Shown here in pieces: positions 3,418-7,568 of a stretch of 26,408 bases of DNA. The DNA lies in IMG/VR virus record IMGVR_UViG_3300011334_000072, positions 1-26,408 of that record. One strand, given 5' to 3'. Both the position numbers and the translations under genes were made by a program. This DNA comes from a virus (taxonomy: Duplodnaviria; Caudoviricetes). Below the pieces are notes generated by a model. The model made no database searches. It was given only the letters and a program-made list of their open reading frames with translations, and was not told where the DNA came from. Within the stretch, counting starts at the first letter, position 1, and each line of letters begins with the position of its first letter.

Positions 3418-3698
3418 CCGAGCAAGAAATAGCATTTATAGAAGCCAATATTATAAACTTTGAGGCAGTTGCTTTAGGGTTTACTAAAAACATAGAAAGA
3501 GAAATACTTGAGGAGTATGCGAATTTATATCGTAAATATGTCAACAAGGATTTTAATTTCAATTCGTGGTGTGGCTCTTGCGTCTTTGATATGCTTAAAA
3601 GATTGTCAGCACATTACGAAGGATTAAAGTATATTGCCAAACTCAACCAACCAAAACCAAACGATGTCCAAACTAAGAATCTGCGCAGTCGGAAGTAG
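3414..3698 (+). CDS. Hypothetical protein with CxxC motif
   Basis: 94-aa ORF, ATGA-coupled, contains WCGSCV. Confidence 0.7.
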   Translation: MTEQEIAFIEANIINFEAVALGFTKNIEREILEEYANLYRKYVNKDFNFNSWCGSCVFDMLKRLSAHYEGLKYIAKLNQPKPNDVQTKNLRSRK

Positions 3699-4680
3699 AC
3701 ATTCAGGAGTTACTTACCATCGCCTGGCATTGCCTTTGTCGGTAATGCAAAAGGAGTACTGCATTATCACAGATACGATGACCGAAGAGATGCTTATTGA
3801 GAAGTCAATAAACGTGGTTGTCGTTAATCGTTTTTGTGAATTGATACCATTGCCTGAATTATTAAAATGGAAGGCTAAGATTGGCTTTAAATTGGTTGTG
3901 GATATTGATGACTATTGGGAATTGTTTAGCCAGCATTTATCTGCGCCTACATATCGGTCTTTAGGAGTAACTCAAGTTATTAAGAATTATATCAAGGTAG
4001 CTGATATTGTTACGACAACTCATAACCGATTGAGGATTGAGATAGTAAAGATTAATCCTAATTGCTTTGTTTTGCCTAATGCTTTGCCATTTGACAAAGA
4101 CCAATTTACTGCGACAAGAAATGTAAACGAATTTGTTAACATTGCACATACGGGGAGCATAACTCATTTTCCTGATATGAGGCAATTAAAGAATCCGATT
4201 AGAGAATTAGCCAAGTCAAAATCATTTAAGGAGTCAACACGAATGCTTCTATGTGGATGGAATAAGTTTAATGAATTTCATTGGAAACAGATGGGCGATT
4301 GGTTTACTGCTGGCGAGAAACTAAACTATAAAATTCTTGAATCAATGCCAGTAGATTTATATATGAATTTTTATAACGAGGCTGATATATTATTAACTCC
4401 TTTATTAGATAATAAATTCAATCGATTAAAATCAAATCTAAAGGCATTAGAAGCTGGTGCTAAACGGATTCCAATAATGGCTATTAAAAGAGCGCCATAC
4501 GATGACATTCCAACGGTGTGTTGGGTTGATAATTGGGAACGAGATATTAAACGAATGGCATTTAGTTCACAAATGAGAACGGATTTTGGCGAGTCAAATG
4601 CCGAATATGTACGGGAACATTATGACCTATTTAAAATTAATGAAGATAGATTTGCTATTTATTCTAAACTAATAGAATAA
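3664..4680 (+). CDS. GT-B fold (GT4-like) glycosyltransferase
   Basis: GVTYHRLALP, VVDIDDYW, VLPNAL, GSITHxxD and FNxxKSNLKALEAG motifs. ATG at 3664 is preferred to TTG at 3634. Confidence 0.85.
   Translation: MSKLRICAVGSRHSGVTYHRLALPLSVMQKEYCIITDTMTEEMLIEKSINVVVVNRFCELIPLPELLKWKAKIGFKLVVDIDDYWELFSQHLSAPTYRSLGVTQVIKNYIKVADIVTTTHNRLRIEIVKINPNCFVLPNALPFDKDQFTATRNVNEFVNIAHTGSITHFPDMRQLKNPIRELAKSKSFKESTRMLLCGWNKFNEFHWKQMGDWFTAGEKLNYKILESMPVDLYMNFYNEADILLTPLLDNKFNRLKSNLKALEAGAKRIPIMAIKRAPYDDIPTVCWVDNWERDIKRMAFSSQMRTDFGESNAEYVREHYDLFKINEDRFAIYSKLIE
4654..4662 (+). promoter_or_regulatory. GCTATTTAT motif, candidate phage late promoter
   Basis: Exact copy of the recurring 9-mer, 19 nt before the ATG at 4682. 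Confidence 0.45.
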
Positions 4681-4681
4681 G

Positions 4682-5428
4682 ATGCCAGTAATTAAATGTT
4701 CAAATTCGAAATGGCGCATCGGGAACGGTGCTTGTATTTATGAAACGGAAGAAAAAGCAACTGAAGTATGGAAGGCTATATTGGCAAGCGGAGAATACCG
4801 TGCAGATATTAACAAGGTTTCTTTTGATTTCGATGACACATTGTCTACGGCAAGAGGTCAAGAGATTGCGAAAAGGGTTATCAGGGAAGGTAAAGAAGTT
4901 TATATTATAACCAGGAGAAATGAATACAATTCGGCTGAGGTTTATCGTATGGCTGAAAGATTAGGGATATTAAAGTCAAGAGTTTATTTTACTAATGGAC
5001 AATACAAATGGATGACAATTAAACGTTTAGGTATTGGAACTCATTACGATAATAACCAAAAGGAGATTGATTTAATTAAGATTAATACCGATACGAAAGC
5101 AATGAAATTTGCATTTGTAGATTCTTACAATGATTATCCTGAGGCAGCGGTTAATAATGCTAAACGTGCTTTAAAATGGGCAGATGAAAATGGTTGGGGA
5201 GAATGTGGAACTCCAGTAGGTAAAGCAAGAGCAAATCAATTAGCAAATAAAGAGAACATTACAAGGGATACGATTGCAAGAATGGCTTCGTTTAAAAGGC
5301 ATCAACAAAATAAAGATGTTAAATATGGCGAAGGATGTGGAGGCTTGATGTGGGATGCTTGGGGAGGTACTGAAGGAATTGAATGGGCAATAAGAAAACT
5401 TGAGCAAATAGATAATGCCAGCAACTGA
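4682..5428 (+). CDS. Fusion protein: short N-terminal domain, HAD-like domain, and a C-terminal Trp/Gly/Cys-rich domain
   Basis: HAD motif I SFDFDDTLS, IITRR, K and HYDN. A separate C-terminal block reads SYNDYP...GWGECGTPVGKARANQLA...GCGGLMWDAWGG. Confidence 0.65.
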   Translation: MPVIKCSNSKWRIGNGACIYETEEKATEVWKAILASGEYRADINKVSFDFDDTLSTARGQEIAKRVIREGKEVYIITRRNEYNSAEVYRMAERLGILKSRVYFTNGQYKWMTIKRLGIGTHYDNNQKEIDLIKINTDTKAMKFAFVDSYNDYPEAAVNNAKRALKWADENGWGECGTPVGKARANQLANKENITRDTIARMASFKRHQQNKDVKYGEGCGGLMWDAWGGTEGIEWAIRKLEQIDNASN

Positions 5429-5948
5429 CAAAGAATTTTTTGATTATGAATTAAGCATCGGAGTTACTCCTGAGAATCCTGACTATTTTAATTTAATGAA
5501 CGGAGTTGCTAACATCATAAAGAATTATTCAAGAAATATAATTGAGATAGGCGCTGGGGTGGGAACATTAGGCGAATGTTTGATTCAAAAAGGTTGCGAT
5601 TATTATGGCATTGAGCCAAATAAGTTTCATAGGGATTTTTCTTATTCAAGAGGCATCGTTTTAAATGACTTATGTAATTATCCTAACCATTGCCAAATGA
5701 TTGTTAGTATCGAAGTATTTGAGCATTTAACCGATGAGCAGATAAGAGATTATTTAAGCAATATTGAATGCCAATACTTTTACTTTTCATCGACTCCATA
5801 TACAACAACGGAAGAATTTGATAAATGGTGGGGGCATATTAACATTAAATCTGAAGAAGAGTGGATTAAACTATTCTCAGAATTTAAATTTACATTAGAT
5901 AAAAAATTAATTATACCGACCGAGTGGTCATTACTTTTTAAAAAATGA
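5415..5948 (+). CDS. Class I SAM-dependent methyltransferase
   Basis: IEIGAGVG motif I, YGIEPN motif II, SIEVFEHL, GHINIK. Confidence 0.85.
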   Translation: MPATDKEFFDYELSIGVTPENPDYFNLMNGVANIIKNYSRNIIEIGAGVGTLGECLIQKGCDYYGIEPNKFHRDFSYSRGIVLNDLCNYPNHCQMIVSIEVFEHLTDEQIRDYLSNIECQYFYFSSTPYTTTEEFDKWWGHINIKSEEEWIKLFSEFKFTLDKKLIIPTEWSLLFKK

Positions 5949-6484
5949 ATATAACAACAACCAAATTGACCGACATAAAGTCGAATCCAAACAATCCAAG
6001 AATTATCAAGGATGACAAATTTAAAAAGTTAGTAGCATCAATTAAGGAATTTCCTCAGATGCTATCTTTAAGACCTATTGTCGTAAACGATGATATGATT
6101 GTACTTGGTGGGAATATGAGGCTAAAGGCTTGTAAAGAAGCTGGACTAAAAGAAATTCCAGTAATAAAAGCAAGTGATTTAAACGAAGAACAACAGAAGG
6201 CATTTATTATTAAAGACAATGTTGGATATGGAGAATGGGATTGGGATATGCTTGCAAATGAATGGGATGCTGAGGAGTTAGTTGAGTGGGGTTTAGATAT
6301 ACCTAATTTTGTAATTGAACCTAATGCAGATGAATTACTTGGAGAGGATAAGAATAATCCAGCTACAATGAAAATAACCTTTGAAAGTGTAGAGCAATTA
6401 CAACAAGCAGAAAACGATATTAGAGAATTAATTGATAGAAAATATAAAGGCGCTTATTTTTCAGTTTCAGCAGGAGAAATATGA
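5945..6484 (+). CDS. ParB/Srx N-terminal-domain protein
   Basis: NPNNPR, LVASIKEF, RPIVV, LGGNMRLKA and IKDN...GEWDWDML motifs. Confidence 0.85.
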   Translation: MNITTTKLTDIKSNPNNPRIIKDDKFKKLVASIKEFPQMLSLRPIVVNDDMIVLGGNMRLKACKEAGLKEIPVIKASDLNEEQQKAFIIKDNVGYGEWDWDMLANEWDAEELVEWGLDIPNFVIEPNADELLGEDKNNPATMKITFESVEQLQQAENDIRELIDRKYKGAYFSVSAGEI

Positions 6485-7083
6485 GATTAGAAAAAGCATC
6501 TAATAAAGCAATAAAATTTGCTTGCTTAAATTTCCATTATGCTAAAGCAGTTCCAACTTATTCAATTGGTTATGCAGTTTTTAATAATAATAACGAATGG
6601 TGTGGAGTAGTTTTATTTGGCGGAGGCGCTTCGGTTAATATGCCAACAAAATTTAATTTAAAAAATGGTCAATATTTAGAATTAAATAGAATGGCTTTAA
6701 ATGGCAAGCAATCTTCTACAAGTAAAGTTTTATCAATTGCAATTAAATTAATAAAAAAAGAATGTCCAACCATAAAGATACTATTTAGTTACGCAGATAA
6801 AGGGCAAAATCATAATGGTATTATTTATCAAGCAACCAATTGGATTTATATAGAAAATATTGAAAGTAGCGGTACTGAATATTTTTTAGATGGAACTTGG
6901 AAACACGACAGAGGTAGATATAATTGGTCGGTAGATTTTAAAAAATTACCTAAAAGAAAGAAGGCTGGTAAACACAAATATGTTTATCCTTTAGATAAAA
7001 GTTTATTAGAGATTTGTAATAAACTTAAAAAACCTTATCCTAAAAATTTGAGCGATAAGGTAGAATCGAACTCCCCTTCTTGA
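6481..7083 (+). CDS. Mom-like (GNAT-fold) DNA adenine hypermodification enzyme
   Basis: NFHY, GVVLFG, LELNRM, SYADxxQxHxGIIYQATNWxY, KHKYVYPL and terminal PYPK motifs characteristic of Mu Mom-like proteins. Confidence 0.8.
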   Translation: MRLEKASNKAIKFACLNFHYAKAVPTYSIGYAVFNNNNEWCGVVLFGGGASVNMPTKFNLKNGQYLELNRMALNGKQSSTSKVLSIAIKLIKKECPTIKILFSYADKGQNHNGIIYQATNWIYIENIESSGTEYFLDGTWKHDRGRYNWSVDFKKLPKRKKAGKHKYVYPLDKSLLEICNKLKKPYPKNLSDKVESNSPS

Positions 7084-7120
7084 CTGGTTGCCAAGTGTGC
7101 TACCACTACACTATTATCGC
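7051..7120 (-). tRNA. tRNA-Gly-like RNA (anticodon ACC), non-canonical, probably not used in translation
   Basis: Minus strand folds as GCGATAA TA GTGT AGTGGTA GCAC A CTTGG CAACCAG TCAAG AAG GGGAG TTCGATT CTACC TTATCGC T. It has a 7/7 acceptor stem, D-loop GG, T-loop TTCGATT and U73. Atypical features are A33, A34, a 3-nt variable region, a G51-A63 mismatch and no encoded CCA. Confidence 0.8.
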
Positions 7121-7129
7121 ATTGATTAA

Positions 7130-7137
7130 CAAATATA
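7130..7137 (-). promoter_or_regulatory. Bacteroidota-type -7 promoter element (TAnnTTTG) for the tRNA-like gene
   Basis: Minus-strand TATATTTG lies 9 nt upstream of G1. Upstream TTTG copies are 16 and 24 nt away, not at the usual ~19-21 nt. Confidence 0.55.
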
Positions 7138-7157
7138 TAAAAATTATGTAAAACAAA

Positions 7158-7568
7158 ATGGCAAACGAACAAAATTTAGTAAGTTTTAAGAAAGGTCAAT
7201 CAGGGAATCCAAATGGTCGACCAAAGAAATACGTTACTTTGTTAAAAGAATCAGGTTATAATATGACCGAGATTGGAATAACAATTCGTAAAATGCTTGC
7301 TATGAATATTGACCAACTTAAAGAGATATTTGATAATCCTGAAAGTTCAATATTAGAAAAGACAATCGCTGGAGCAATGAATAAGTCTTTAAAAAACGGT
7401 TCATTGTATTCAATAGAAACTTTATTAAGTAGAGTATTTGGTAAGCCTAAAGAATCGGCTGACATAAAACAAGATACTGAAATAACTATAAAATTTGCCA
7501 ATGGAGATTACCCTACCGACTCCACACGAGGCGCAGAAAAAAGTATTACAGAGCAAGGCGAGGTTTAG
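7158..7568 (+). CDS. Terminase small subunit (DUF5681-like)
   Basis: N-terminal NLxxFKKGQSGNPNGRPK, C-terminal LLSRVFGKPKE, directly upstream of the large terminase. Confidence 0.8.
   Translation: MANEQNLVSFKKGQSGNPNGRPKKYVTLLKESGYNMTEIGITIRKMLAMNIDQLKEIFDNPESSILEKTIAGAMNKSLKNGSLYSIETLLSRVFGKPKESADIKQDTEITIKFANGDYPTDSTRGAEKSITEQGEV

Follow-up and report, generated by a model that had tools for sequence, protein, structure and literature searches.

The virus record IMGVR_UViG_3300011334_000072 is a linear sequence of 26.4 kb, and its whole length of 26,408 nucleotides is referred to below as the window. A gene of the Mom family of GNAT DNA-modification enzymes (200 residues) sits between a ParB-N domain gene, which overlaps its start, and the packaging genes (Table 1). 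The first of the latter, a DUF5681 gene, is probably the terminase small subunit, judging from its position ahead of the large subunit. The best match of the large terminase is only 30% identical and does not indicate a host. Upstream lie a DNA methyltransferase-like gene (99–755), a glycosyltransferase gene (3634–4680) and a methyltransferase gene (5415–5948), so the region is rich in modification enzymes. A Pfam and PHROG scan of 27 window ORFs identified no integrase. The sole tRNA call in the window is a tRNA-Gly(ACC) at about 7050–7120 on the minus strand, and the corresponding RNA gene overlaps the final 33 nt of the mom reading frame in antisense orientation.

Table 1. Features of the mom locus in the window.
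Feature	Position	Strand	Basis or remark
ParB-N domain gene	5945..6484	+	Overlaps mom start; Pfam scan and comparison of the slots of relatives
Mom-family GNAT DNA-modification gene, 200 aa	6481..7083	+	PF25680; phrog_1384; 8bv8 profile match
CAA trailer, CCA not encoded	7048..7050	-	Sequence
tRNA-Gly-like RNA gene	7051..7120	-	tRNA call, Rfam RF00005, family comparison
4 bp T-stem (7074-7071 with 7063-7062 and 7060-7059)	7059..7074	-	Family comparison
Bulged A in T-stem	7061	-	Gives a 7+4 acceptor branch
C32-G38	7090, 7084	-	Sequence
Anticodon ACC	7088-7086	-	Sequence
A33	7089	-	Anticodon loop CAACCAG
TATATTTG, match to the -7 box TAnnTTTG	7130..7137	-	9 nt before G1; predicted own promoter
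DUF5681 gene	7158..7568	+	Right edge of exchangeable slot; probable terminase small subunit

The product of ORF 6481–7083 passes the curated cut-off of PF25680 (118.5 bits against 27.1; E = 3.9e-34) and matches phrog_1384, and a profile built from 56 proteins of its clade matches the Mom structure PDB 8bv8 with an E value of 7.6e-16. The clade is ∼30% identical to Mu Mom. Counted along the 8bv8 alignment, Mu residues His58, Tyr59, Arg111, Ser124, Asp149, Tyr159 and Trp181 fall in invariant columns of the clade. Seven of the eight important Mu residues are thus matched; the eighth, Arg151, which is reported to be essential (PMC13219725), aligns with Gly108, beside the invariant Lys107. Formation of 6-NcmdA from Gly-tRNA-Gly has been demonstrated for Mu Mom. 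This enzyme takes glycine from Gly-tRNA-Gly-CCA and attaches it to N6 of adenine in double-stranded DNA; it accepts all three tRNA-Gly isoacceptors of E. coli and rejects Gly-tRNA-Ala, and the authors of that study suspect that only the acceptor end is read (PMC13219725).

The RNA runs from G1 at 7120 to U73 at 7051 and scores 40.4 bits with Rfam model RF00005 (gathering threshold 29; E = 1.8e-5). The cloverleaf of a canonical elongator tRNA-Gly is present, as are the determinants of glycyl-tRNA synthetase (GlyRS), which consist of G1-C72, C2-G71, C35, C36 and U73 (PMC7826273); the window RNA has all of these together with G3-C70. A preliminary description of the same DNA, made from the sequence alone, had reported the anticodon loop CAACCAG with A33 and the anticodon ACC, an acceptor stem paired at 7/7 positions, U8, A14, G18G19, the T-loop TTCGA and CAA in place of CCA after U73, and each of these features is found in the sequence. 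That account did not mention the C32-G38 pair, the position of the RNA over the end of mom or the promoter motif discussed below. The RNA departs from a canonical tRNA in having A33 in place of the U33 expected of a 7 nt anticodon loop, and in lacking the uninterrupted 7/5 acceptor branch, which is replaced by 4 bp with a bulged A. It would need trimming of its 3′ end and addition of CCA by the host, for which RNase P and the CCA enzyme would have to accept a bulged 7+4 branch. Folding of the single sequence also leaves the bulged A unpaired, but is only weakly better than that of shuffled sequences (z = -1.76), so that the case for this RNA rests on comparison with its relatives.

Related elements were collected with two detectors. 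The earlier one, which rewarded GCG, CGC and CC, gave 111 distinct elements; identity counts were repeated with the other, a structure-only detector that sets no requirement for particular letters and gave 116. Model R1 also scores ordinary tRNA-Gly and hence was not used to define the family. With the structure-only detector, the GCG/CGC acceptor pairs are present in 114 of 116 elements (the other two are compensated at 3-70), U73 in 115 and the loop CC (C35 and C36) in all 116. In an alignment of 33 copies of equal length (mean identity 70%), double-sided changes occur at 14 of 20 pairs and 99.8% of cells are paired, a pairing count favoured by the choice of these copies for the structure. 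Compensatory changes are found in all four helices. Covariation of this kind largely refutes an origin as a decayed tRNA or attachment-site relic, as well as a role as a DNA packaging signal beside the terminase genes. The low Rfam score, the missing CCA, the weak folding z score and the position just before the packaging genes would all suit such a relic; however, a pattern for the bulged type, which catches 62 of the 111 elements, gave no match when run against 151 genomes from the family to which one Flavobacterium genome belongs, no integrase was identified among the 27 window ORFs scanned, and the RNA is absent from 20 of 24 relatives whose small-subunit gene is near-identical. We therefore consider a relic or signal of this kind highly improbable.

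The substitution pattern agrees with the earlier proposal that selection, rather than random decay, keeps the RNA chargeable while its translational features are lost. Mutations spread evenly, as in an ordinary pseudogene, are not what is seen: 1-72, 2-71, 35, 36 and 73 are almost fixed and the stems covary. That proposal had anticipated fixed positions 35, 36 and 73 alongside variable positions 32–34 and 51-63. The former are indeed fixed and 33 and 34 do vary, but 32 is mostly C and the 51-63 region carries an invariant bulged A. The retention of U8, G18G19 and TTC holds for the window copy and fails across the family, in which they occur in 52, 75 and 75 of 111 elements, respectively; among 92 canonical phage tRNA-Gly controls, U8 is found in 89 and GG in 91.

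The anticodon loop is the most changed part of the RNA, with 33 different sequences among the 111 elements and lengths of 7 nt (68), 8 nt (35) or 6 nt (8). A 7 nt loop and U33 occur together in only 26 of 111; A33 is present in 35 and C32-G38 in 62 of the 68 seven-nucleotide loops, while the canonical controls have U33 in 88 and A38 in 86 of 92 cases. A C32-G38 pair would be expected to hamper decoding. The anticodons are TCC in 94 elements, ACC in 14 and CCC in three, so ACC is not a selected trait. Nor is the lack of CCA a defect, as had been supposed, because 38 of the 92 ordinary phage tRNA-Gly genes also lack it; it is encoded in eight of the 111 elements. C74 is nevertheless present in all 111, compared with 20 of the 38 canonical controls without CCA.

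These data bear on two further explanations. The RNA might be a functional tRNA-Gly that resists nucleases and replenishes the general pool for both translation and Mom, for example by reading GGT, which makes up 186 of 524 glycine codons in 25 window ORFs. Such a role would be in keeping with the intact cloverleaf, U8, G18G19 and TTCGA of the window copy and with the proposal that phage tRNAs evade nucleases through changes in their loops (PMC10264068), but it fits poorly with loops of 6 or 8 nt in 43 of 111 elements, A33 in about half of the others, ACC in only 14, a bulged T-stem in 116 of 116 and the copies without a D-arm in Psychrobacter phage Y8A (see below); it appears quite unlikely. 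Alternatively, the RNA could be a decoy for host anticodon nucleases or for tRNA-acetylating toxins aimed at tRNA-Gly, the former of which had been suggested in the preliminary description. A decoy would likewise keep the marks of tRNA-Gly and lose those of translation. A decoy of an anticodon nuclease should, however, mimic the loop of the host tRNA, which is where these elements vary most, and the decoy reading offers no reason for the element to track two distant Mom clades or to be absent when a methyltransferase fills the slot. With the tight tie to mom left unexplained, we regard a decoy as very unlikely.

When the bulged register is used, the T-stem is fully Watson–Crick paired in 110 of 111 distinct relatives (71 with 4 bp and 39 with 5 bp), whereas the canonical register is fully paired in none and one element fits neither. 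The bulge lies two pairs from the acceptor junction, and the bulged base is invariably A across the 111 elements; this bulged A is also present in 116 of 116 elements from the structure-only detector, in which the canonical model was permitted, and in 66 of 66 copies from a second Mom clade. In the 33-sequence alignment, the bulged register is 100% paired and the canonical register 61%, column 48-60 is unpaired in 33 of 33 sequences, and the pair beside the bulge shows a two-sided exchange of G-C and A-U in seven of 33. The canonical controls have a bulged T-stem in 0 of 92 cases, by their definition. The G51-A63 mismatch and the 3 nt variable region described earlier are consequences of forcing a 5 bp T-stem onto the sequence; in the bulged register the variable region has the normal 4 nt.

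The affinity of a tRNA for EF-Tu is set by pairs 49-65, 50-64 and 51-63 (PMC3239215), and the bulge falls among them. Our literature search found no EF-Tu measurement for a bulge at this place in the T-stem, so escape from EF-Tu by means of the bulge is an inference. tRNAs with 8/4 and 9/3 acceptor branches do translate (PMC5389517). Recognition by Mom is an equally possible role for the bulge, by analogy with FmhB, which recognises features of the D- and T-arms (PMC7826273).

Linkage to mom was counted on the protein side in 178 loci plus the window, of which 174 had enough DNA past mom; four cut loci (L030, L112, L134 and L148) were left out beforehand. The structure-only detector finds a like RNA at the 3′ end of mom in 164 of 174 loci, with a background of 0 in 453 windows, and the identity-bonus detector in 158 of 174 (106 sense and 52 antisense), with a background of two in 587. 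Three of the ten structure-only misses are called by the latter, leaving seven of 174 loci without an element. In the second Mom clade, which is 29% identical to the window Mom, the RNA is present in 80 of 80 loci (66 distinct RNAs, 41 sense and 39 antisense). The clade sets contain related and some duplicate contigs, so these counts are not independent events.

Searches that start from the RNA give a similar picture, within a test for mom that spans about 1.2–1.5 kb and uses a profile from one Mom clade. Among 120 loci matching the bulged-type pattern, mom lies beside all 74 of those whose flanks measure 700 nt or more at either end; in the 46 with short flanks it is present in 16 and absent in 30. 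Among 120 loci matching a generic tRNA-Gly(TCC) pattern, those with long flanks have mom beside seven of seven A-bulged and 0 of 57 canonical elements, and one C-bulged and six unclassified elements are all without mom.

Anchoring on the neighbouring genes shows how the pair is gained and lost. The downstream gene is accompanied by both mom and the RNA in four of 52 loci and by neither in 48. For ParB-N, 30 of 80 loci have both, 48 neither and two mom only; of the latter two, L502 is cut and L501 has the RNA on inspection. Relatives without mom have an N6/N4 methyltransferase, a C5 methyltransferase or an ABC-GNAT protein in the slot and no RNA (nine proteins scanned), and in most of those tested the ParB-N domain is fused to, or precedes, another modification enzyme. 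Co-loss alone is weak evidence because adjacent things travel together. The RNA of L422, L427 and L429, however, is identical to that of the window and stands behind a Mom that is only 29% identical. Together with the changes of orientation described below, this indicates that the RNA follows the enzyme family and not one cassette, strand or frame.

A comparison of window positions 5945–7157 with L419–L444 also shows that near-identical phages exchange DNA-modification genes in the slot bounded by ParB-N and the terminase small subunit. This slot holds Mom with the RNA, an N6/N4 methyltransferase–ParB-N fusion, a C5 methyltransferase or an ABC-ATPase–GNAT fusion.

Most copies (99 of 111) overlap the mom reading frame and the other 12 are located beyond its stop codon. 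The orientation of the RNA changes 23 times on a quick Mom tree, at least 11 of these changes being forced by strong branches; such changes may reflect recombination rather than inversion. In a separate observation, many Mom proteins in databases have C-terminal tails (such as GGANPTQPL and LSDKVESNSPS) that are the translated embedded RNA in either orientation, and such tails could flag an embedded RNA from protein data alone.

The motif upstream of the window RNA corresponds to TAnnTTTG, the -7 promoter box of Flavobacterium and Bacteroides (PMC7641319), and the host may, on the basis of this motif, belong to the Bacteroidota. In clade 1, 26 of 37 antisense copies have it no more than 30 nt away; the adjoining 30 nt contain it in one of 37, and shuffled sequences give a mean of 1.5 (maximum 7); in clade 2 it precedes 30 of 34 antisense copies. 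Among sense copies it is found in 0 of 74 in clade 1 and in 17 of 32 in clade 2, often inside the mom coding sequence. A rule that the promoter accompanies antisense copies alone is thus true of clade 1 and is broken by the sense copies of clade 2. The distribution of the motif before antisense copies points to an RNA that is transcribed separately and would act in trans. A sigma-70 scan was not above chance and no terminator was found. Four RNA-labelled runs yielded short contigs of relatives only, one of which spans 7090–7366; it carries no information on strand or ends and does not count as evidence of expression.

This arrangement invites the alternative that the RNA regulates Mom, either as a charged or uncharged mimic that restrains the enzyme until late in infection or by antisense overlap with mom. 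Mom activity is toxic in Mu and is under tight control. A regulator would show the same tight linkage, and the frequent overlap with mom, with a third of copies antisense and carrying their own promoter motif, would suit it. However, the fixation of C35 and C36 in 116 of 116 elements fits recognition by GlyRS and would be unexpected in a mimic of the acceptor end, and the repeated orientation changes and the copies past the stop codon argue against pairing with the mom mRNA as the function that is conserved. Regulation of this type is therefore unlikely.

The closest functional parallel is provided by the non-proteogenic (NP) tRNA-Gly species NP1–NP3 of Staphylococcus aureus, which are donors for FmhB, FemA and FemB (PMC7826273). 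Both they and the phage RNA have GlyRS determinants, a T-arm that departs from the norm and a GNAT-fold transferase as partner, which is predicted in the case of the phage. In contrast to the NP tRNAs, which are of staphylococcal lineage and serve peptidoglycan, the phage RNA is phage-encoded and fixed to the gene of its enzyme, and its target would be DNA. The NP T-stem is made of the weak pairs A49-U65, U50-A64 and A51-U63, whereas that of the phage RNA is G-C rich with a bulged A (in 4 bp elements the outer pairs are G-C in 66 of 71 and 61 of 71). The NP T-loop has TGC or TGT; the window RNA has TTC, and of the 36 relatives in 111 without TTC many have TGC. The anticodon loop is deranged in the phage RNA, unlike in the NP tRNAs. 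Weak binding to EF-Tu and preferential use by a transferase, which mark the NP tRNAs, are predicted for the phage RNA as well. In the Mu system (PF25680, PDB 8bv8), the enzyme is of the same family, but Mu uses host tRNA-Gly and has no RNA beside mom.

A short 4 bp T-stem and a T-stem bulge are also known from the allo-tRNAs (8/4 and 9/3), from 8/4 tRNA-Sec and from SelC* with its bulge at 51a, and some irregular tRNAs of the allo-tRNA set are charged yet not used in translation (PMC5389517). Allo-tRNAs and tRNA-Sec, however, keep 12 bp by means of a longer acceptor stem, whereas the phage RNA has a 7 bp stem and a 7/4 or 7/5 branch; its bulge is on the 3′ strand and its identity is Gly. By analogy, the phage RNA would work like an NP tRNA-Gly, although it fails the sequence tests for one, and it is not an allo-tRNA. 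Beyond the Mom papers, our search of the literature, in which subscription journals were thinly covered and a prior mention is possible, returned nothing relevant on a Mom-linked phage tRNA. The available portions of the Mom paper (PMC13219725), of its supplementary files and of the preprint make no mention of a linked RNA.

Eighteen hand-picked mom neighbourhoods from cultured phages were also inspected. A Gly-like RNA lies beside mom in four of them (Salinibacter B2_17, Psychrobacter Y8A, Arthrobacter BarretLemon and Microbacterium Appa) and is missing next to mom in the other 14, Mu included; the RNA is therefore optional for the Mom family. The Salinibacter RNA, annotated as tRNA-Gly, has a 5 bp T-stem with a bulged A. 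Psychrobacter phage vB_PmaS_Y8A (OQ059336.1) has two unannotated RNAs in tandem (L642:1262-1402), flanked by a Mom-like gene and the terminase small-subunit gene. Both lack a normal D-arm and are missed by ARAGORN, and each keeps the bulged A, U73 and an encoded CCA. The Y8A paper, in its available part, reports no tRNA genes and lists a separate MOM gene, ORF69 (PMC10434257).

The other two RNAs are unbulged. That of BarretLemon (L552:1195-1265) is an unannotated tRNA-Gly(TCC)-like element that starts inside the end of mom and has an odd D-arm and loop. That of Appa (L554:1251-1325) is annotated as tRNA-Gly(CCC), is convergent with mom with a hairpin between them, and has A8, G9 and a canonical T-stem. 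A further mom-linked Gly-like RNA, in the region L252:1201-1240, has a shrunken D-arm, a 4 bp anticodon stem and an unbulged T-stem; its locus was dropped from the generic tRNA-Gly(TCC) scan by the acceptor filter. A blastn search of cultured phages with the window RNA gave no full match. Separately, cyanophage S-SSM6a has a tRNA cluster directly upstream of a Mom-like gene; the cluster opens with a tRNA that is flagged as pseudo and has the loop CTTATAA (L648:303-374), and it contains no Gly tRNA.

The interpretation that we favour, with a probability of roughly three in four, is that the product of this conserved tRNA-Gly-like gene at the 3′ end of mom serves as a private, non-ribosomal glycine donor for Mom. 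The RNA would have its own promoter, and host enzymes would trim the transcript, add CCA and charge it; the bulged T-stem and altered anticodon loop would keep the RNA off EF-Tu, to which it would bind weakly, and off the ribosome. The window Mom, which would be active and prefer the linked RNA, would then use the charged RNA to place glycine on adenine of the phage DNA, and the glycylated DNA would be protected from restriction. A private donor is not required by the enzyme as such, because any of the three E. coli tRNA-Gly species will serve Mu Mom, which is suspected of reading the acceptor end only. The cultured phages and the seven clade loci that lack the RNA, the Gly108 at the position of Mu Arg151, the rarity of encoded CCA, the use of tRNAs with 8/4 and 9/3 branches in translation and the unbulged mom-linked RNAs also count against this interpretation.

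In a broader form, to which we give an even chance, Mom and its own orthogonal glycine carrier would constitute a two-part module in hundreds of phages, with the bulged A as a new block to EF-Tu and possibly the handle for Mom, and with an RNA that sheds its D-arm, flips strand and swaps between distant Moms. The invariant bulge would be a one-base candidate for escape from EF-Tu, and the bulged form is available in cultured Salinibacter B2_17 and Psychrobacter Y8A. If the interpretation as a glycine donor is correct, a phage could modify thousands of sites in its DNA with glycyl-tRNA and yet not compete with EF-Tu, and phage 'tRNAs' that are now miscalled as pseudogenes or missed would have a non-translational job, which would bear on the long-standing puzzle of tRNA genes in phage genomes.
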